Part shown: piece by piece, positions 409-9,634 of the stretch | Layout of the letters: each line of letters opens with the position of its first letter | Numbering within the stretch: position 1 is the stretch's first letter | Source of the DNA: an uncultured delta proteobacterium | GTDB lineage: Bacteria; Desulfobacterota; BSN033; UBA1163 | Direction: 5' to 3' | Length of the DNA: 64,000 bases | Assembly: GCA_963708295.1 (NCBI GenBank) | Contig: CAVPSJ010000007.1 | Location: 128,001 to 192,000 of the forward strand | Notes under the pieces: generated by a model | What the model was told of the DNA's origin: nothing | The model's input: only the letters and a program-made list of their open reading frames with translations | The model's database searches: none | Translations under genes and position numbers: made by a program

Positions 409-933
409 ATGCGGTCATGCCTCCCAAGAGGACAGGGCGTTGAGGGCGAGATGCGGAAGGGAAGCCCCGAGAAAAAAGAGGAGAAGCAGATACTGATCTT
501 TACCTTGGCGAGCGAGGAATTGGGGCTGGATATTTCTTGTGTGCGTGAAGTACTGAGGCCACAGAAGACTTACCCTCTTCCCCGGACTCCTCTTTTTATT
601 GAGGGAGTCATTGATTTGAGGGGATATATCATTGCGTTAATCGATTTGAGAAATAGACTTATTGGAAAACCGATGGAGAAGGAACCCAACCAAAGGATCA
701 TCGTTTGCAGAATCCACAATTTTATCGTCGGCCTGACGGTCAACAGCTTGAAGGAGATCATCACTTTATCCAAAGACGACATTATGCCTACGCCGGAGGT
801 CGTGGCAATGCAGATGGAGGCAGAGGTCATATCGGGGATCGCAAGGGTTGGCGAAAGAATTGTCCCCATTTTGGATCTGGAGCACATCCTGACAAGAAAA
901 GAAGTCGCCGAGCTGTCGGCTCTTAAACAATGA
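409..933 (+). CDS. cheW: Chemotaxis coupling protein CheW (start may be ATG 451)
   Basis: CheW-like segments LGLDISCVREV, LPRTPLFIEGVIDLRG and IVPILDL; lies between cheB and cheR. Confidence 0.9.
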   Translation: MRSCLPRGQGVEGEMRKGSPEKKEEKQILIFTLASEELGLDISCVREVLRPQKTYPLPRTPLFIEGVIDLRGYIIALIDLRNRLIGKPMEKEPNQRIIVCRIHNFIVGLTVNSLKEIITLSKDDIMPTPEVVAMQMEAEVISGIARVGERIVPILDLEHILTRKEVAELSALKQ

Positions 934-2606
934 AAAATATCTTACCCCTATCCAGCGACGATTTCTGTCTTTTTCAAGAACTGCTCATAGAAATGAGCGG
1001 CCTCTTCTTTGAAGAAAGCAGGAACCAGTCCTTGCATCTAGCCCTTTGGCAGCGCTTACAACGTCGAGGCTATGATTCCTACCGGGAATATTATAACCTT
1101 CTGAAATTCCATCCGGAGGGGCGTCTTGAGATACGAGAACTGCTCGATTTGATCACCATCGGCGAGACTTATTTCTTCAGAAACAAGGCTCAGTTTGACG
1201 TGCTGGCGAAATTTGTTTTGCCTGAAATCATGCAGAGGAAAGTGGATTCAAGGGATAAGTGGTTGCGCGTGTGGTCAGCAGGCTGCTCTGGGGGAGATGA
1301 GACCTATTCAATTGCCATGGCAATGATGGAAGTCGTCCCTTCTCACGAAGACTGGCATATCTCCATTTTGGGCACGGACATAAACAGAAATGTGCTCACT
1401 TCCGCGAAGGAAGCCATGTACAACGAAAAGCACATCGGCCATTTGCCAAAAGAATACGTGGCCAAGTACTTCACGATCCGGGGAACCACCTACGCACTGA
1501 ACTCGAACGTCAGAGAGTTGTCTTGCTTTGAATATCATAACCTGGCCAAGGATCCATTCATCCATGAAAAGATGCAAAATACAGACATTATTTTCTGCAG
1601 AAATGTCATGATATACTTTGATAGCCAGACCACTCAGAGGGTCATTGACAATTTTTACAACTGCCTTGCGCACGACGGCTATCTTTTCCTGGGACATGCA
1701 GAGACTCTGTGGCAGATTACCAACAAGTTCGAGAGAGTTGAGTTTCCTCAGACATTCATCTATAAGAAGCGGTTAGCCCCGTTTGAGGAAGACACGACGA
1801 AGCCCTTTATCGCCGTGCCCGAGATCGCCGTCGGGGACTTTGCCCCTTCGGCAGCGCCAATTCCCGCCTCGTACCAGGTCGATTCAGGGTCTTTATTTGA
1901 AGCCCAAGGAAACCATCGGGGCTCAGGTCCAGCTTGGAGCGAACCTCCGGCCGCAGATTGGGGAGCCGAGGGGGTAAGTTTCATTCAAAAAAATGGCTTA
2001 GCGAAAAGCTCTTTTTGTCAGGAGCAAGGGGTTGGGCTCCAGGAAAAACCCAAGCCCCTCGATCTTCTTCGGAGACCTTGTGACGTTAAAGAAGAAGTTG
2101 ATTCGCCATATCACGGAGCGACCCTCGGTTTGAAAGAAATGAACGGCGAGATTGCCCTCCCCTCTTCCGATCCGTTTGATAAACAGCGAACAAACTATAT
2201 GCGTGCTTATTTGACGAAGGCGACCGTTTTGGCAAATGAGGCTAAATACAAAGAAGCGACGGATATCCTTGGAAAAATCCTAGAGCTCGATAACCTGAGT
2301 GTCGAGGCGTATTATCTTCTGGGTGTTTTATCATACAAAAACAGTAATCTTGCCGAAGCCGAGACACAATTCAGAAAGGTGATTTATGTGGACCCTGATT
2401 CCGTGATTGCTTATTTTAACCTTGGAAACATGTATCTATACCAGAGAAAGTTTAGCGAAGCTGCCAGGGAATTTAGAAACGCCATCCGCCTGTTGGAAAA
2501 GAGGCCGAAAGACGAACAAGTCAGGTTTTGCGAGGACTTCACAGTGGAGTTTCTCCTACGGGCGTGTCGGAAGAGTCTTGTAGAGATCTCCAAGAGAGGT
2601 GAATGA
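930..2606 (+). CDS. cheR: CheR-type methyltransferase with long linker and C-terminal TPR repeats
   Basis: TIGETYFFR, RVWSAGCSGGDE, ILGTDIN, HNL, DIIFCRNVMIYF and GYLFLGHAE motifs. TPR helices AYYLLG and AYFNLGNMY near the C-terminus. Confidence 0.9.
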   Translation: MKNILPLSSDDFCLFQELLIEMSGLFFEESRNQSLHLALWQRLQRRGYDSYREYYNLLKFHPEGRLEIRELLDLITIGETYFFRNKAQFDVLAKFVLPEIMQRKVDSRDKWLRVWSAGCSGGDETYSIAMAMMEVVPSHEDWHISILGTDINRNVLTSAKEAMYNEKHIGHLPKEYVAKYFTIRGTTYALNSNVRELSCFEYHNLAKDPFIHEKMQNTDIIFCRNVMIYFDSQTTQRVIDNFYNCLAHDGYLFLGHAETLWQITNKFERVEFPQTFIYKKRLAPFEEDTTKPFIAVPEIAVGDFAPSAAPIPASYQVDSGSLFEAQGNHRGSGPAWSEPPAADWGAEGVSFIQKNGLAKSSFCQEQGVGLQEKPKPLDLLRRPCDVKEEVDSPYHGATLGLKEMNGEIALPSSDPFDKQRTNYMRAYLTKATVLANEAKYKEATDILGKILELDNLSVEAYYLLGVLSYKNSNLAEAETQFRKVIYVDPDSVIAYFNLGNMYLYQRKFSEAAREFRNAIRLLEKRPKDEQVRFCEDFTVEFLLRACRKSLVEISKRGE

Positions 2607-3585
2607 TATGAACGGACAGGAAAAATTCGAAGCCTATCTTTCGTCTGTCAGGCACGACCTGCGCAGCCAACTCATGGTCGTCCGCGAAGGGGCGAGCATG
2701 ATTTTAGACGGCCTGGGAGACTCCCATTGCGATAAATGCTTCTCCTTTTTGAGACCCGCCTTAGAATCCGCAGACGAATTAAATAAACTGATTGGGGAAC
2801 TCCTGAGCAGCTCTCGGTTCAATGCAATGTTACCATTGCCCACTTCCGCAAAAGAGGACAGACCGAAGAAGGCTAAGGAGGAACCTCCGGAAAATGAGCT
2901 CGAAATCATGAAAGATGAGCTAAGAAATGAGTTGGAGATTATCAAGGATGACCTGATGGGAATGATATCCCATGTCGTTCGCACCCCATTGACCGTCGTT
3001 AAGGAAAGCCTGTCCTTGATGCTGGAGGAAATACCGGGAAAACTGAATGCCAAGCAAAAGGAATTGCTTTCTACGGGAAAAGAGAACGTAGATGAATTGA
3101 TCCAATCGGTCGAGGAGATATTTGAGAAGTCCTGGAACGAAATAGTCCATCCCGCCCAGAACTGTGTCCCTACCAAAAAAGCAACACCCCAGAAAGAAAC
3201 CTTAACGGCGAGAAAAAAGATACTCATCGTAGAAGACCAACCACCTATTGTCAACATGCTCAAGATGAGACTGGAAGCCCATAATTACGAAGTCATCACC
3301 GCAGGCGACGGACAGGAGGGTTTGGAGAGAGCCCAAAAGGAAAACCCAAACTTGATTATCTTAGACGTCATGCTTCCTAAATTGAGCGGTTATAAGATCT
3401 GCCAATTTCTCAAGTCCGATCCGAAGTATAACGCGATTCCCATCATCATTTCCTCTGGAAGAACACCGCAAGAAATCAAAAAGGTGAGCCAGGAAGTGGG
3501 TGCGGACGCATTCGTCTCTAAACCGTTCGAAGCGGAGGTACTGCTCGCAAAAATGAAGGAACTTTTAGAGAAGAAGGGAAAATAG
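2599..3585 (+). CDS. Response regulator with two HisKA-like H-box segments and a C-terminal receiver, no kinase ATPase domain
   Basis: H-box-like SVRHDLRSQL and ISHVVRTPL. Receiver motifs ILIVED, IILDVMLP and SKPF. No N/G1/F/G2 boxes seen. Confidence 0.75.
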   Translation: MNDMNGQEKFEAYLSSVRHDLRSQLMVVREGASMILDGLGDSHCDKCFSFLRPALESADELNKLIGELLSSSRFNAMLPLPTSAKEDRPKKAKEEPPENELEIMKDELRNELEIIKDDLMGMISHVVRTPLTVVKESLSLMLEEIPGKLNAKQKELLSTGKENVDELIQSVEEIFEKSWNEIVHPAQNCVPTKKATPQKETLTARKKILIVEDQPPIVNMLKMRLEAHNYEVITAGDGQEGLERAQKENPNLIILDVMLPKLSGYKICQFLKSDPKYNAIPIIISSGRTPQEIKKVSQEVGADAFVSKPFEAEVLLAKMKELLEKKGK

Positions 3586-3749
3586 CCTTTCCGCGCAGTG
3601 GAGGGTAAAGGAGTTGCATGAGCATACAGGGCGTTGGGATCGGCGAGGTAAGTGATGTTTGTCTCGATCGCCCTCAAGCTGAAAATGCCCGATTCTCATC
3701 CGTGATGAATTAGAGAAGAGGGAGAAACGTGTTTATAACGGCAAAAAAG

Positions 3750-4508
3750 ATGGCGAAAAAAAAGATCCTGGTGATCGACGACATGCCAAATATCGTTACC
3801 ATGGTAAAAGCCCGCCTGGAAGCGAGCGGGTACGAGGTCATTGCTGCCCTGGATGGACAGCAAGGCTTGAACTATGCCTCTTCGGAGAAACCGGATCTGA
3901 TCATACTGGATATCGTCATGCCCGCCGGCGGGGGTTATTCCGTCTATACGAGATTAAAGATGTCTCCCAAAACCCAGTCTGTCCCGGTCATTTTCCTTAC
4001 TGCGAAGGATAGACCGGAGGATGTGGCAAGGGCTTATAATTTAGGTGCGCAATATTATGTTAAGAAACCCTATAAGCCAGAAATGTTACTGGACACGGTC
4101 AAGAAAGTATTAGAATCATCCGCACGGCCGGAACAGGCCAAAGGATTGCAGAAGCGAATACTGGTCGTAGGGAAAGAGCCGGAGATTGCCGAGTTCGTGA
4201 AATTAGTCGACATGGGCTACGAAGTGAGCATCGTATCAAGCATCAGAGAGGGAGCCGAGGAGGCCAAGAAGGAAGAACCCGACGCCATCTTTCTGGATGG
4301 ATCGCTCGTCAAAGCCAATGACTATGACGGCTTTTACCAGCTCAAGCTGGAATTTGCCTCGATTAAAGCACCCATGATTATATCTGTCACCCGGGGAGAA
4401 TTGGAGGAATTTCAAAAGAAGATCGGCAGTTTCAGTAGTTATTGCTTGAAGCCGTTTAATTACATTGATCTATTAGGGCTCATCCGGGTGGCTTTACAAA
4501 AAAAATGA
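3750..4508 (+). CDS. Tandem receiver-domain protein (canonical REC plus degenerate REC)
   Basis: First REC has ILVIDD, ILDIVMP, FLTA and KKPY. Second has ILVVGKE, IFLDG and LKPF. ORF track start is GTG 3729; ATG 3750 is the alternative used here. Confidence 0.8.
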   Translation: MAKKKILVIDDMPNIVTMVKARLEASGYEVIAALDGQQGLNYASSEKPDLIILDIVMPAGGGYSVYTRLKMSPKTQSVPVIFLTAKDRPEDVARAYNLGAQYYVKKPYKPEMLLDTVKKVLESSARPEQAKGLQKRILVVGKEPEIAEFVKLVDMGYEVSIVSSIREGAEEAKKEEPDAIFLDGSLVKANDYDGFYQLKLEFASIKAPMIISVTRGELEEFQKKIGSFSSYCLKPFNYIDLLGLIRVALQKK

Positions 4509-4798
4509 ACGGTTCGGTCCAACTCCCGAGCGGAGAGAGCCATGAACTGGAGTGCACTTCATACCCCAGGGATCGGCGACTCGACTCACTCTTTGCGAGA
4601 AGTTGCGTGACGAAAGAATGCCATCGCGATGGGATGCAGGATCGGGAGAAGCCTTCGAGCAAAGGAACGGAAGAAGCCGATGCAGGGACCGCGTCAAAGG
4701 ACCGAGTGGGCATCGCGTTTTCTTGCCTATCCTGTCGGTTTGCCCACGACTCGGAATCACACGGGTGAGGAAAATAGCATAGGAAGATCAAACGGCTT

Positions 4799-7579
4799 AT
4801 GGACCCATTGAAACACACCCGGCCACCTCTTCAAGGAAAGGCAGACGAATACCTCCAGCTGTCAGACGGTGGAGCGACTTGGTACCGCCTCGACCTTCAT
4901 CTGCACAGCCCCGGCGTCCTGACCTTTATGCCCCCGAAAGGGAGGAAGCGTGAAGACGGAATAGGTCTCTCGGACGTCTATATTGAGCAACTCTCAACTC
5001 AAGGAATTTCCCTGGCTGCCATCACGGACTACAATGGAGTAAACATCGAATGGTTTGAAGTGACGGCAGCGAAGGCGAGTAACCGTGGCATCACACTTTT
5101 GCCCGGGGTGGAGATGACCTTCAGACAATACAAATATGGCCTCCACATATTGGCGATCTTCGCCGGCGATACCGACCTGAATCGCTTGAACACTTATCTT
5201 CGGTCGCTCGATAAAGACCCCACCACCCCTTTGTTTGACAACCTTGGGTCTCATCGGGACATTGATCTGAAAACCAGCTTGACAGAAACCCTGAAAGACT
5301 TGCGGAGCCAGTTCAACTGCCTGTTGATCCTCCCCCATCCTGATCAGACAAATGGCATTTGTAAAAGTCTCACCGCCGAAGTGGCCGCCAAACTTCTGAT
5401 GGAGATAGGACCCGATGCCATCGAATATTGTCCGGAAAAAGAAAAAAGCAAACTTCAGTCGACGGGCATTCTGCCGGCAGACTTCTGGGATCAGGTCGCT
5501 TCCGTGGAATTCTCCAACCCGAAACGGATAGAAGAGATTGGGACACAACACCGAACGAATGGAACCCTTCGGGCGACCTACCTGAAACTCAGCGCAACAA
5601 ACTTGGACGCCCTGCGGCTAGCGCTTCACACTCCGCAGACCCGTTTGTCCGTCGGTGGGATTCCTCCTGCGAATCACCCAAGAATCAGAAGTGTTGCCGT
5701 CTCAGGGTCCGGTTTCCTTGGAAATCTGAATATATCTTGGAACCCGGATCTCAATGTCATTATCGGAGGCAAGGGTGTGGGTAAATCCGCCATTCTCGAA
5801 GCCCTCCGCTATGCGTTTGCCATGCCCCCCTATTCCGATCAATCTTCCCGCAAAGAACTCGTTGGGAGATCTCTCGGAAGTGACGGCAGGGTTGAGGTCA
5901 TCCTGGACAGGCCTATCCGGGAAGGAAAAATCCGTCAGTATCGCATCGTCCGAGCATGGGGCGAAGAACCTCAAACCTTTCAAGTTAACCCTGAAAAACC
6001 ACTCAAGGCAAGCCCTTCTGATCTCCTGACTCCAGATGGCGGGCTAACGGTCTTCGGACAACACGAGATGAATGCCGTTTCTGGAAGCCAAGACCAACGA
6101 CTTGCGTTCCTGGATGAATTGCTGGGTGAGCAGGCTCGCAAATGCGCGGACGCTGTTGATAAGGCCATGGAATCAGTCACCCATAACGCCGCTGCGATCC
6201 AGGATCTCCAGGCACGGCTGACGAGACGGGATGAATATTCCCGACGGCTTAAAGAAATCGACCATGAGATCGAAACCCTTAAAGACCACGGCCCAGAAAG
6301 GCCGGAGGAAGGGGCCGGTTCTCCCTCCATGGCAGGATGCTTGAAGAATGCGACCAATGCCCTCAGAAGTGCTTCATCGGATTGTGATCAATGGCGCCTG
6401 AACCTTCTTGCATTACTGGAAAAGACTCACCGAACCCTATCAGAGGTGGAGGACAAACCGTCACCCATCCTGCAAGAGGCTGCCAAAGTTCTCTCTGTTC
6501 TTGAGGAAAGTTTGAAGGTGGTCCTAGACGATCAAACAACCCTTTTTGAACAAGCGATACAAAGTTTGGCGCGTCTGGATATGCGGCTACAAGAAAAACT
6601 TCGCGCGTCGGGTGCAGGAGCCAACAAAATTGAAAAGAGCGCAAAAACAGAACCTCCAGGTCAAGACCGAATCTTAAAGTTAACGCAGGAAAGAACCTCC
6701 CTGTCATCCCTTTTCGCTGAGTTCAGCGGGATCGAAGATCGCTTGAAAGCCCTGACACAAGAACGGCGAGGGCTTCTTCAGCAGTTCAGGGACTGCAGAT
6801 CCAAGCAGAATGGATTACGGAAAGAGATAACAGATATTATTGCAGAATCCCTGAACGGTCGAGTCCGTCTCCGGGTAGAATTTAAGGGACAAAAGGATGG
6901 TTACAAAGGGGAGTTATCGCGTGTCTTAAAAGGATCAAACATCGCTCAGGGGGTAATCGATCAGCTTGTTCTCCCAGAAGCCACAGACGGTATTACCCTC
7001 GCCGAAGCCGTGCGAGCAGGAAGCAAGGAAGTCCAAACCGTTTTTGCCCTGACCTCTGAGATGGCGGACCGCTTGATCCATTGGCTGACCGCTGGGGAAT
7101 CTCGGCTCCTCCAACTGGAGGCATTCATCCCTCAGGATGCCCTTCGTCTGGAAATGAAGATTGACGGCCAATATCGGTCTCTTGAACATCTGTCCACAAG
7201 CCGGGGGGCCATAGAGATATTGCTTCTTCTGCTCGGCCTAAAGAGTCAGATTCTCGTCGTTGACCAACCGGAGGACTACCTCGACGACCGATCCATCCAT
7301 GAAGAGATTCTACAGATTCTTAGGGAGCAAAAAGGGTTGAATGGCCAAAGCCCGCAGCATCAGATCATCTTTGCAACAAATGACGCCACCATTCCCCTGA
7401 TGGGCGATGCCGAACTCGTAATTCCTTTGGAGGTCAGAAGCGATCGTGCCCATATCATCAGCCAGGCCTCCAACGACGATCGCTCCATGCAGGAGGTCAT
7501 CAGGACCCTCATGAAGGGCGGGAAAGAGGCGCTTCAAAAGCGCGTGAAGAAATACGGCGGATTAACTCCTGGCGCATAA
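4799..7579 (+). CDS. PHP-domain + ABC/SMC-like ATPase (Ppl/TrlF-like), catalytic motifs partly degenerate
   Basis: PHP motifs DLHLHSP, AITDYN, PGVE, LHIL and LPHP. Walker A GGKGVGKS, long coiled-coil region, Walker B/D-loop VVDQPEDYLDD. Confidence 0.8.
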   Translation: MDPLKHTRPPLQGKADEYLQLSDGGATWYRLDLHLHSPGVLTFMPPKGRKREDGIGLSDVYIEQLSTQGISLAAITDYNGVNIEWFEVTAAKASNRGITLLPGVEMTFRQYKYGLHILAIFAGDTDLNRLNTYLRSLDKDPTTPLFDNLGSHRDIDLKTSLTETLKDLRSQFNCLLILPHPDQTNGICKSLTAEVAAKLLMEIGPDAIEYCPEKEKSKLQSTGILPADFWDQVASVEFSNPKRIEEIGTQHRTNGTLRATYLKLSATNLDALRLALHTPQTRLSVGGIPPANHPRIRSVAVSGSGFLGNLNISWNPDLNVIIGGKGVGKSAILEALRYAFAMPPYSDQSSRKELVGRSLGSDGRVEVILDRPIREGKIRQYRIVRAWGEEPQTFQVNPEKPLKASPSDLLTPDGGLTVFGQHEMNAVSGSQDQRLAFLDELLGEQARKCADAVDKAMESVTHNAAAIQDLQARLTRRDEYSRRLKEIDHEIETLKDHGPERPEEGAGSPSMAGCLKNATNALRSASSDCDQWRLNLLALLEKTHRTLSEVEDKPSPILQEAAKVLSVLEESLKVVLDDQTTLFEQAIQSLARLDMRLQEKLRASGAGANKIEKSAKTEPPGQDRILKLTQERTSLSSLFAEFSGIEDRLKALTQERRGLLQQFRDCRSKQNGLRKEITDIIAESLNGRVRLRVEFKGQKDGYKGELSRVLKGSNIAQGVIDQLVLPEATDGITLAEAVRAGSKEVQTVFALTSEMADRLIHWLTAGESRLLQLEAFIPQDALRLEMKIDGQYRSLEHLSTSRGAIEILLLLLGLKSQILVVDQPEDYLDDRSIHEEILQILREQKGLNGQSPQHQIIFATNDATIPLMGDAELVIPLEVRSDRAHIISQASNDDRSMQEVIRTLMKGGKEALQKRVKKYGGLTPGA

Positions 7580-7816
7580 GATCAGATGGCCTCCGACCCA
7601 ATCTTCTTGCTGATCGAGCCGAACAAGCATTTGTGAAATTCCCTACCCTCCCCATTCTGCTGCGGTAAGAGATGGGCGCTCAGATCGATCATGATAGATC
7701 CTTTGCTCAAAGCCAGCTTGATGCCTTTCTAAACACTAATTCAGATTACTGTTCAGCCTCTGGGACCGATGTCCAATGCCGGCCCACGACGTGGGGAGTT
7801 AAGAAATGCGAATGGG

Positions 7817-7923
7817 TGACACAAATTGACCCTTTAATCTTTCTCCGGGCACTTCGATGTTGAGAATAATTAAATTATTTCAAGTAGTTATATCGATTTT
7901 TTTGATTTGGCATCAAAGATGCA
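7817..7923 (+). promoter_or_regulatory. Putative sigma54 promoter with IHF-like site and candidate upstream activator site
   Basis: TTGGCATCAAAGATGCA (7907-7923) has GG-N10-GC spacing. TTTCAAGTAGTTA (7878-7890) is one mismatch from IHF WATCAANNNNTTR. TGACACAAATTGACC lies at 7817-7831. Confidence 0.65.
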
Positions 7924-7964
7924 ATTTCTTCTTATCAAAGAGAATAGGTTAAAGGAGGTTATTT

Positions 7965-8132
7965 ATGGTCCAATATTTAGAGCTTGTTTTGAAGCGCGAT
8001 TTTGCTTCTCGGTTCAGACACGCGGCGGAAAAAGTGAGGCTGCTTCTCGAAAAAACACCCGATGAGGCTCCCAAAAAGAAGACTGAAGAACCGGATTGGA
8101 AAGAGAAGTTTGGAAAGAACTGGTACTATTGA
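7965..8132 (+). CDS. Small hypothetical protein, 55 aa (MVQYLELVLKRDFASRFRHAAEKVRLLLEKTPDEAPKKKTEEPDWKEKFGKNWYY); absent from ORF track
   Basis: Translated by hand. Strong RBS AAAGGAGG just upstream of ATG 7965; clear similarity to the downstream 65-aa ORF. Confidence 0.75.
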   Translation: MVQYLELVLKRDFASRFRHAAEKVRLLLEKTPDEAPKKKTEEPDWKEKFGKNWYY

Positions 8133-8233
8133 ATTCATAGACGTAATCCAATTAACGACGCTTCTTCAATTTGGCGTTAAAGGTGGATTCAGTGCCACCC
8201 GAATGCAGACAGGTTCGATGAAAGGAGGATATT

Positions 8234-8431
8234 ATGGCACAGTATTTAGAGAATGTTTTGAAGTACGATCGTGTCTCCGGACGGAAATCTGGGTTGGAAA
8301 GATTGAGGATGTTCTTTAACGCTGCACCTGGCGTGCGTTCAAAAGAGAAGGCCGACGGGGTGGATTGTGATGAGAAGACGAAGTCGTGGGAAGAAGATAT
8401 GAAAGAGAAGCTTGGGGGATGGTGGTGGTAG
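8234..8431 (+). CDS. Small hypothetical protein, 65 aa, paralog of 7965-8132
   Basis: RBS AAAGGAGG. N-terminus MAQYLENVLKYD matches MVQYLELVLKRD; C-terminus DMKEKLGGWWW matches DWKEKFGKNWYY. Confidence 0.75.
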   Translation: MAQYLENVLKYDRVSGRKSGLERLRMFFNAAPGVRSKEKADGVDCDEKTKSWEEDMKEKLGGWWW

Positions 8432-8531
8432 TAAAGTCTTGACTCCTACACCTTGTTGCGTTTGAAATGTTCTGCAAGGTCCGATGTCCAGCCGTCCGGC
8501 TAGATTGTCATGTGGCCCACCAAAAGGTCTC

Positions 8532-8572
8532 TACGATTCAGGCACCTTTAGTGTCTGAATCGTAAGTTTTTC
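8532..8572 (+). terminator. Intrinsic terminator-like hairpin between the small-protein pair and convergent moaD
   Basis: TACGATTCAGGCAC-CTTTA-GTGTCTGAATCGTA followed by AGTTTTT. Confidence 0.65.
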
Positions 8573-8614
8573 CTGAAAAAATATTGACACCCTGCTTCCA
8601 TCTATATAATCCTC

Positions 8615-8887
8615 TCATCCTCCAGTGAGCATGACCACGAGGTGAATGTCGTCGCCATCTTTAACTGGTTTCAACAGTTCGTCCGGGTAGGCGCTGGCAT
8701 GATTCAGGTAGACTTCAACGTTGTTGAGCAGTTTATCTTTCTTGGCAAACAGCGCTTTCTCCATTCCGGGGAACTGTTTGATGAGATGGCTCAGGCATGC
8801 ACCCACGGTATTCCCCTCTACGGCCACCGACTCCAAGCCGTTGGTGAATTGTCGATGGGTGGTATGAATGTGCACGTTGACGGCCAT
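8615..8887 (-). CDS. MoaD/ThiS-family sulfur carrier protein
   Basis: 90-aa beta-grasp-like sequence ending in TGG (diglycine); immediately downstream of a MoeB/ThiF gene. Confidence 0.85.
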   Translation of the reverse strand: MAVNVHIHTTHRQFTNGLESVAVEGNTVGACLSHLIKQFPGMEKALFAKKDKLLNNVEVYLNHASAYPDELLKPVKDGDDIHLVVMLTGG

Positions 8888-8890
8888 GTC

Positions 8891-9634
8891 TTACTCCTTT
8901 TTCGCTGAAGACCCGCAATGATCACAATTCGGGTTTTTGTCGAGTCTGAATTCGCTGAACGTCACCTTCAACCCATCGTATATCAATAACCGATTGGTCA
9001 GCAGTTTACCAATCCCCACGAAATACTTGATCACCTCCGTCGCCTGAATACTCCCGATGACAGCCGGAGCAACGCCAATCACCGGAAACTTTTCTTGCGG
9101 CACAAGACCTCGATACATACACCTGAGGCAGGCTGTCTTTCCCGGAAGGACGGTCATGACCCTCCCCTCAAACCCATTGACTGCGCCGTGAAAAAATGGA
9201 ATATTCTTCTCAATAGCACAGCGATTCAAGACGTAGCGAGTCGGCAGGTTGTCCATGGCATCCACGATGGCATCGCAGTCACCCACAAGTTCTGAGACAT
9301 TTCCTTCCGTAATGGTCTCTGCGATTGCCTGGATCTCCACCATCGAATTCAGGTTCCTCAATTTCGCTCTGGCAGAGTCCACCTTTTTTCTGCCGACGTC
9401 TTCTTCCCCGTGCAAAACCTGCCTGTTCAAATTGCTGAGTGCCACGCGGTCATGGTCGACGACCCGAATCATTCCTATTCCGGCAGCGGTCAGGTAGAGG
9501 GCAATGGGAGACCCGAGCCCTCCAGCACCCGCAATGACCACCCGTGATCTTTTGAGTTTCCCTTGCCCTTCTTGTCCAAACTCTCGGATCAAGATTTGCC
9601 GATCATACCTCTCTCGCTCGCTCGGCGTCAGCAT
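8891..9634 (-). CDS. moeB: MoeB/ThiF-family adenylyltransferase
   Basis: RYDRQ, GAGGLGS, SNLNRQ, DAMDN and Zn-site CLRC...CDHC. Confidence 0.88.
   Translation of the reverse strand: MLTPSERERYDRQILIREFGQEGQGKLKRSRVVIAGAGGLGSPIALYLTAAGIGMIRVVDHDRVALSNLNRQVLHGEEDVGRKKVDSARAKLRNLNSMVEIQAIAETITEGNVSELVGDCDAIVDAMDNLPTRYVLNRCAIEKNIPFFHGAVNGFEGRVMTVLPGKTACLRCMYRGLVPQEKFPVIGVAPAVIGSIQATEVIKYFVGIGKLLTNRLLIYDGLKVTFSEFRLDKNPNCDHCGSSAKKE

Follow-up and report, generated by a model that had tools for sequence, protein, structure and literature searches.

A putative sigma-54-type unit encoding paralogous microproteins with sequence homology to the C-terminal tail of CheY-like response regulators in an uncultured delta proteobacterium

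Small proteins that tune the pathway of a larger regulator by binding or competition are known in eukaryotes as microProteins (LITTLE ZIPPER, Id), and MgrB, SafA, PmrD, and Sda are bacterial modulators of two-component systems. To our knowledge, none of these four is a truncated paralog of a response-regulator tail. The microproteins described here, which are known from sequence, would share with all of these the concept of a small protein acting on a larger regulator's pathway. Aromatic C-termini are a second point of comparison: HbYX denotes the hydrophobic-Tyr-X C-terminus of proteasome activators, and the Pseudomonas aeruginosa microprotein DimA, to which MucE is a similar case, is induced by AlgB, a regulator that belongs to the sigma-54 activator class. 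DimA is a 92-aa periplasmic protein that depends on a Sec signal peptide, and activation of AlgW, a PDZ protease, requires the W and F at the C-terminus of DimA (PMC12780092). The locus analyzed here, which lies in a 64-kb stretch of DNA (the window), resembles DimA in encoding microproteins with a low-confidence predicted fold and a terminal W-x-aromatic motif (essential in DimA) and in carrying a conserved upstream box where DimA has a conserved upstream site for direct induction by the two-component regulator AlgB; DimA is secreted via Sec and activates AlgW (PMC12780092), whereas the microproteins here have no signal peptide as judged by hydropathy.

The features of the unit are collected in Table 1. 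The two genes are paralogs, aligning end to end in BLASTP with 23/65 identical residues (E 3e-9), and the two frames with their ribosome-binding sites and their WYY and WWW ends were found just where the sequence-only reading had placed them, as was the terminator-like hairpin that it had noticed behind them (6 G-C pairs in the stem, a 5-nt loop, then AGTTTTTCCT). Between the genes, the spacer (8130-8240) shows no significant folding (z -0.48), and there is no second sigma-54 motif in the 35- to 222-nt spacer of any of the loci with a WYY gene followed by a WWW gene; the simplest interpretation is therefore that both genes are read from one transcript. The region is best explained as a self-contained two-gene operon, apparently made up of the box, an A/T-rich bend region, a sigma-54 -24/-12 promoter, a leader of about 30 nt, the WYY gene, the WWW gene, and the terminator, with transcription predicted to start near 7934.

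Table 1. Positions of the features of the microprotein unit within the window
Feature	Position	Strand	Detail
Conserved upstream box, candidate enhancer-binding activator site, 28 nt	7805-7832	+	recurs at the paralog and at 45/46 promoters
IHF-like site TTTCAAGTAGTTA, weak	7878-7890	+	one mismatch to WATCAANNNNTTR
Sigma-54-type -24/-12 element TGGCATCAAAGATGCA (TGGCAT-N6-TGCA)	7908-7923	+	GG-N10-GC spacing
ORF1 ribosome-binding site AAAGGAGG	7951-7958	+	6 nt to ATG
ORF1, WYY-type microprotein, 55 aa	7965-8132	+	ends DWKEKFGKNWYY (C-terminal NWYY); family HMM E 5e-25
ORF2 ribosome-binding site AAAGGAGG	8221-8228	+	5 nt to ATG
ORF2, WWW-type microprotein, 65 aa	8234-8431	+	ends DMKEKLGGWWW; family HMM E 5e-38
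Intrinsic-terminator-like hairpin and T run, end of unit	8532-8564 (with T run to 8574)	+	14-pair stem

Sigma-54 promoters (TGGCAC-N5-TTGCW class) are marked by a GG and a GC doublet with a spacing of 10 nt, and the element found here is the sole match to TGGCAY-N6-TGCA in the window (0.11 expected; at least one match in 10 of 100 shuffles). Among the loci with at least 130 nt of upstream sequence (n = 53), the motif lies 5' of the first microprotein gene in 50, and the remaining 3 have one-mismatch variants. The candidate activator site proposed from the sequence likewise proved to be a conserved element, with a consensus near AATTGCGAATGGGTGACACAAATTGACTT, located 91 to 95 nt 5' of the -24 element in all but one of 46 distinct promoter regions. 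We observe that its 24-nt core is identical 5' of a third paralog on another contig (C14) of the same genome, and that a 21-nt core of the box has just two sites in the 4.9-Mb genome with up to 3 mismatches allowed, both of them at microprotein promoters (0 sites for a control pattern). The third copy encodes 48 aa, is 67% identical to ORF1, ends in NWYY, and has the same promoter; the whole unit, box included, has thus been duplicated within the genome. The proposed IHF site fared less well: a one-mismatch variant is present, but the strict IHF consensus WATCAANNNNTTR occurs at the corresponding position in merely 10/46 promoters.

The genome has one rpoN match (Sigma54_DBD) and 27 PF00158 (Sigma54_activat) matches, 22 of them at E<=1e-56. 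The box lies within the range of about 80 to 150 nt upstream in which activator sites of such promoters are expected. No PF00158 gene was seen on contig C7, which holds the window, nor in the vicinity of the C14 copy or of the regulator array described below. In five loci (L067, L079, L080, L085, and L075), the sigma-54 motif is located 163 to 178 nt (versus 56 to 79 nt) 5' of the first recognised microprotein gene, and the leader holds an extra stretch of about 100 nt.

With respect to the proteins themselves, Pfam and NCBIfam scans of both peptides and an Rfam scan of 7400-8800 gave zero matches, the best PDB sequence match had an E of 0.67, and the ESM Atlas gave no usable match. A profile of five microproteins recovered 165 short relatives at E<=0.01 among 188 candidates in public protein collections, all of them nameless or "hypothetical," and when 1.84 billion representatives were searched exhaustively by HMM, 26 matched at E<=0.001, of which 25 are relatives of 43 to 116 aa; the 26th, a 923-aa repeat protein, was judged a false hit. 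Longer fused forms were not seen at E<=0.01 among 7999 candidates, which is a weak test. We examined 56 loci, of which one is that of the window, four come from genomes, and 51 come from metagenome contigs. A WYY gene followed by a WWW gene is found in 26 of them, two WWW-like genes in 1, a WYY gene alone in 21 (with at least 300 nt visible downstream), and a WWW-type gene alone in 5; the remaining 3 are too short to classify. Among the 77 complete genes of these loci, 44 end in WYY and 22 in WWW, and most of the other 11 end in near variants. The frame is kept across the 56 loci.

Selection was a check suggested for the family. Among the 35 distinct 165-nt genes of the WYY type, 582 pairs have a median dN/dS (Nei-Gojobori) of 0.25, with 99.7% of pairs below 1; among the 22 distinct 195-nt genes of the WWW type, the median over 227 pairs is 0.36, with 98.2% of pairs below 1, the pairs, like the loci, coming from related organisms and hence not being independent. 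Furthermore, the idea of two functional termini around a divergent middle agrees with the pN/pS values of the WWW type, which are 0.31 at the N-terminus, 0.84 (nearly free) in the middle, and 0.26 at the C-terminus. Both peptides are strongly hydrophilic (GRAVY about -1.0), with a maximum 19-aa hydropathy of -0.22 and -0.27 and no membrane segment, which speaks against the membrane-interface peptide considered in the sequence-only reading. At the level of sequence, both genes thus emerge as real microproteins, soluble and cytosolic by prediction, that are under purifying selection and belong to a lineage-restricted family. The combination of frames, both termini, ribosome-binding sites, promoter, and box kept across 56 loci is far beyond chance, and the view of the locus as a conserved, unannotated sigma-54-type unit, self-contained with its promoter, its own upstream site, and its terminator, and duplicated as such, holds.

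We observe that the microproteins nevertheless have relatives among larger proteins. When related genomes were searched with the peptide profile, matches fell on the C-terminal 40 to 50 residues of proteins of 163 to 228 aa, often in tandem, with E values per genome of 1e-5 to 1e-3. These proteins consist of a single receiver domain (PF00072 covers residues 11-109 only) and a tail that no Pfam or NCBIfam model matched, and they occur in arrays of two to four adjoining a histidine kinase. In hhalign, the microproteins align with the full regulators at 96.7% (E 4.1e-10), residues 1-33 corresponding to regulator residues 114-146. In a run with 9 type-A and 91 type-B tails, from which 24 tails of neither pattern were left out, the WYY type aligns with the type-A tail end to end (columns 1-53, 97.8%, E 6.7e-13), including DW....G.NW, and the WWW type matches the type-A tail at 97.3% (E 2.7e-11); the values against the type-B tail are 94.8% and 95.0% for the two microprotein types. 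Tails and microproteins have collinear motifs in common, namely, ..(Y/F)LE.VLK.(D/E)...GW(K/R)...EK....FF.., then DW....G.NW. These profile alignments support homology between the microproteins and the last three predicted helices (the end of alpha5, alpha6, and alpha7) of a family of CheY-like response regulators, a relationship newly recognised here. The claim of an unrecognised family thus stands as far as Pfam, NCBIfam, PDB, and Rfam are concerned and fails in that relatives exist, in the tails of CheY-like regulators.

The likeness to these regulators lies in the collinear homologous tail sequence and in their occurrence in the same bacterial family. The CheY-like regulators carry a receiver domain, while the microproteins have no PF00072 match, align solely from the alpha5 end onward, and hence have no phospho-acceptor site; they also differ in an inserted charged linker, a free aromatic triplet end, and their own sigma-54-type promoter, and the regulators, unlike the microproteins, are found in arrays beside a histidine kinase. 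The tail-bearing regulators, of about 165 to 190 aa, make up at least 330 clusters with generic names such as "CheY-like chemotaxis protein" or "NtrC family response regulator." On contig C4 of the present genome (G000; 1082397-1085660, corresponding to L063 8392-11659), three tail-bearing CheY-like regulators (170, 164, and 172 aa) lie in one array with a 449-aa kinase-receiver-tail fusion, flanked by a divergent 1133-aa AAA-TPR-BTAD protein, and tail types A and B coexist within this array.

Since the microprotein genes correspond to no more than the 3' portion of the longer regulator genes, they could also be functionless, decaying remnants of response-regulator genes, and some copies are visibly decayed: the WWW gene of L090 is frameshifted, L109 is truncated, and the tail is lost in L087 and L088. 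Against this stand the purifying selection, the start codon and a Shine-Dalgarno-like site 3 to 16 nt before it in 46/46 distinct loci, the dedicated conserved promoter with its box, and the duplication as a unit, and we find this explanation hardly credible.

In structural terms, the AlphaFold2 model of a regulator is of good quality (pLDDT 88.9, pTM 0.85) and places helices at 114-123 (alpha5), 126-145, and 154-169 in the tail stretch. Foldseek and VIA-align searches with this model matched ordinary receiver domains only, none of which covers alpha7; DesR-type chains reach residue 146-148 of the model (Z 17.0, rmsd 1.9, 128 aligned). Modeled alone, ORF2 has a pLDDT of 60.3 and a pTM of 0.22, with a helix at 3-34, disorder at 35-46, and a helix at 47-62, and this low-confidence fold of the free microprotein fits a module that needs a partner. 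A complex prediction for a 171-aa regulator (alignment A5) with a WWW-type microprotein (A4) scored 0.00 twice, was run without controls, and counts neither way.

Taking these observations together, we tentatively favor, at somewhat less than even confidence, a reading of the microproteins as tail modules without a receiver domain that are made on a signal and mimic or compete with the regulator tail. An enhancer-binding activator encoded elsewhere in the genome would switch the unit on upon a signal, and the free, receiver-less tail copies would engage the surface or partner that is normally met by the regulator tail, the outcome being either imitation of the regulator's output or competition with it. 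If free copies do engage the partner of the tail, the same module would be under the control of phosphorylation when fused to a receiver and of transcription when free. The conserved Trp/Tyr C-terminus would then form part of an alpha7-like contact face and not a separate tag. A more specific version, in which these are bacterial "microProteins" in the strict sense, that is, sigma-54-activated truncated paralogs of a regulator output tail by which one pathway titrates or impersonates the output of another, with phosphorylation control over the fused form and transcription control over the free one, is possible but in our view doubtful.

An alternative is that the molecules act as C-terminal docking peptides, the aromatic triplet plugging into a protease, chaperone, or PDZ-like pocket or acting as a degron, with the rest as a spacer. 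The triplet is indeed strongly conserved, WYY or WWW ends being found in 66 of the 77 complete genes, as would suit a C-terminal W-x-aromatic motif of the DimA/MucE type, and the final 14 codons have low pooled pN/pS values (0.30 for WYY, 0.26 for WWW). DimA, with its required terminal W and F, provides a precedent in Pseudomonas aeruginosa, but that protein is periplasmic and has a Sec signal peptide (PMC12780092), whereas the N-terminus of the microproteins is charged, not hydrophobic, and is homologous to a cytosolic helix, so that by hydropathy it does not look like a Sec signal. Moreover, the N-terminal 29 codons are constrained like the tail (pooled pN/pS of 0.28 and 0.31 for the two types), indicating that the body of the microprotein is not a mere spacer, and the regulators share the aromatic cluster, which in them is an internal part of alpha7 and not a free C-terminus. 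In the specific case of proteasome docking, which the hydrophobic-Tyr-X fit noted for WYY could suggest, the WYY type formally fits HbYX and the WWW type does not; PF00227 matches the 91%-complete genome just once, at a 191-aa frame likely to encode HslV, and hence no 20S alpha/beta pair was found, leaving this form of docking without an apparent target there. Overall, we consider the docking explanation unlikely.

The preferred reading, a tail module that mimics or competes with the regulators, also has to be weighed against the distribution of the two protein families. Of the 55 genomes of the order, all of which belong to one family, 4 were found to carry microprotein genes in full length, and these carriers are spread over four genera (three genes in G000, two each in G044 and G023, and one in G050). 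Within the class, 4/68 genomes have them, and when 401 genomes were sampled from the phylum as a whole, G000 and G023 were the only carriers. Tail-bearing regulators are present in two of the four carriers (G000 and G044, 4 each), whereas the search found none in the other two, G023 and G050, whose genomes are 95% and 64% complete, respectively; this weakens any claim of obligate pairing. Among the 51 genomes of the order without microproteins, 19 show regulator-tail matches at E<=1e-4, as read from frame lengths. The two are not adjacent in G000, where contig C4 bears the regulators and contigs C7 and C14 bear the microproteins.

This distribution leaves room for an independent role, in which WYY and WWW proteins form a hetero-oligomer, for example, a stress-induced helical protein, unrelated to two-component signaling, the likeness to the tail reflecting ancestry. 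The order WYY-WWW is kept in the 26 two-type loci over a spacer without a second sigma-54 motif, neither peptide is confidently folded alone, and G023 has microproteins where no tail-bearing regulator was found. However, the 21 loci with WYY alone, which have their own promoter, and the 5 with a WWW-type gene alone indicate that the pair is not obligatory, and we assign this account a low probability.

The genomic surroundings of the unit fall into four contexts: a TrlF-like PHP/AAA ATPase upstream with ThiS/ThiF downstream (the window, G023, and many contigs); a GIY-YIG protein upstream; a nitroreductase upstream with a CoxM-like gene downstream; and a PAS kinase nearby. The TrlF-like ATPase is the upstream neighbor in 18 loci and ThiF the downstream neighbor in 12. 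A functional link to the ATPase was considered and rejected, as 10 of the 14 genomes of the order (n = 55) that have an ortholog are without microproteins. Seven stretches downstream of TrlF-like orthologs in genomes without microproteins showed no sigma-54 motif, box, or microprotein-like ORF. Because the orthologs mostly lack microproteins or the promoter downstream, the adjacency points to shared ancestry of the locus, and because the contexts differ and TrlF-like orthologs occur without the unit, the latter appears to be an accessory, portable module.

The same neighborhoods bear on whether the peptides could be RiPP-like precursors, as had been suggested, with Trp/Tyr-rich ends modified by an enzyme encoded elsewhere. 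Small size and aromatic C-termini would suit such precursors, and 4 loci have an opposite-strand gene of about 420 aa some 450 nt downstream, but no recurring modifying enzyme, protease, or exporter was seen among 101 neighboring ORFs of the 56 loci in the four contexts; in addition, the same motifs occur inside cytosolic response regulators, and constraint extends over the whole length instead of a core alone. A RiPP-like role is therefore very improbable. A ubiquitin-like reading, based on the LGG before WWW and the adjacent ThiS/ThiF, was also set aside, as the GG is missing in the WYY type and in the G023 proteins and ThiS/ThiF lie on the opposite strand.

Upstream of the unit, the window has a cluster on the + strand (930-7579) that includes a CheR methyltransferase fused to TPR repeats (930-2606), a HisKA and receiver protein in which no HATPase domain was found (2599-3585), and a receiver protein whose C-terminal part of about 135 aa has no domain match (3729-4508). 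It is closed by the 926-aa PHP and AAA ATPase, whose nearest family is TrlF (NF045780, E 1.9e-89, below the cut-off) and which is related to the anti-phage protein Ppl, a defence-like ATPase in a chemosensory-type cluster being an unusual arrangement. The order of this cluster is conserved in G023, where it follows ORFs of 345 and 175 aa that are CheB-like and CheW-like by eye; in G050 (contig C45, 6193-8641), four successive frames together make up the TrlF-like ortholog, which may reflect a pseudogene or assembly errors. Downstream, a ThiS-like protein (90 aa, ending in GG) and a ThiF-family E1-like protein (247 aa) are encoded on the - strand (8615-9634), convergent on the microprotein unit. 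Six other loci (L075, at 4422-5099, L076, L079, L080, L084, and L090) have a same-strand gene 227 to 312 nt after the WWW-type gene, of 202 to 226 aa in five of them and a 113-aa ORF in L090; the window has none. The L075 gene matches the sigma-54 activator MobR over just positions 10-190 of 544 (E 3.3e-33), the N-terminal V4R sensor region, and is in this sense another stand-alone piece of a larger regulator.

Public data place the stretch in 20 DNA sequencing runs from 8 studies, with no RNA run among those listed. A search of main texts found no literature on this microprotein family. Among the 10 literature matches listed of 20, none contained KNWYY, QYLELVLK, or PFLEDVLKY; all 10 had GGWWW alone, which was a DNA motif wherever title or abstract allowed a judgment.

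Small proteins are routinely missed by annotation, and the sequence clusters of the present family, at least 165 in number, are labeled "hypothetical" or not at all. Together, the promoter and the box make up a portable sigma-54 module of unusual clarity that could serve to identify its activator. If the reading as free tail modules is right, the family would be a clear bacterial case of a regulator domain that has been copied, stripped of its sensor part, and separately transcribed, and it would hint at what the tail does in the CheY-like regulators, of which there are at least 330 clusters. Such tail-copy microproteins would suggest a new way to wire small proteins into two-component signaling.
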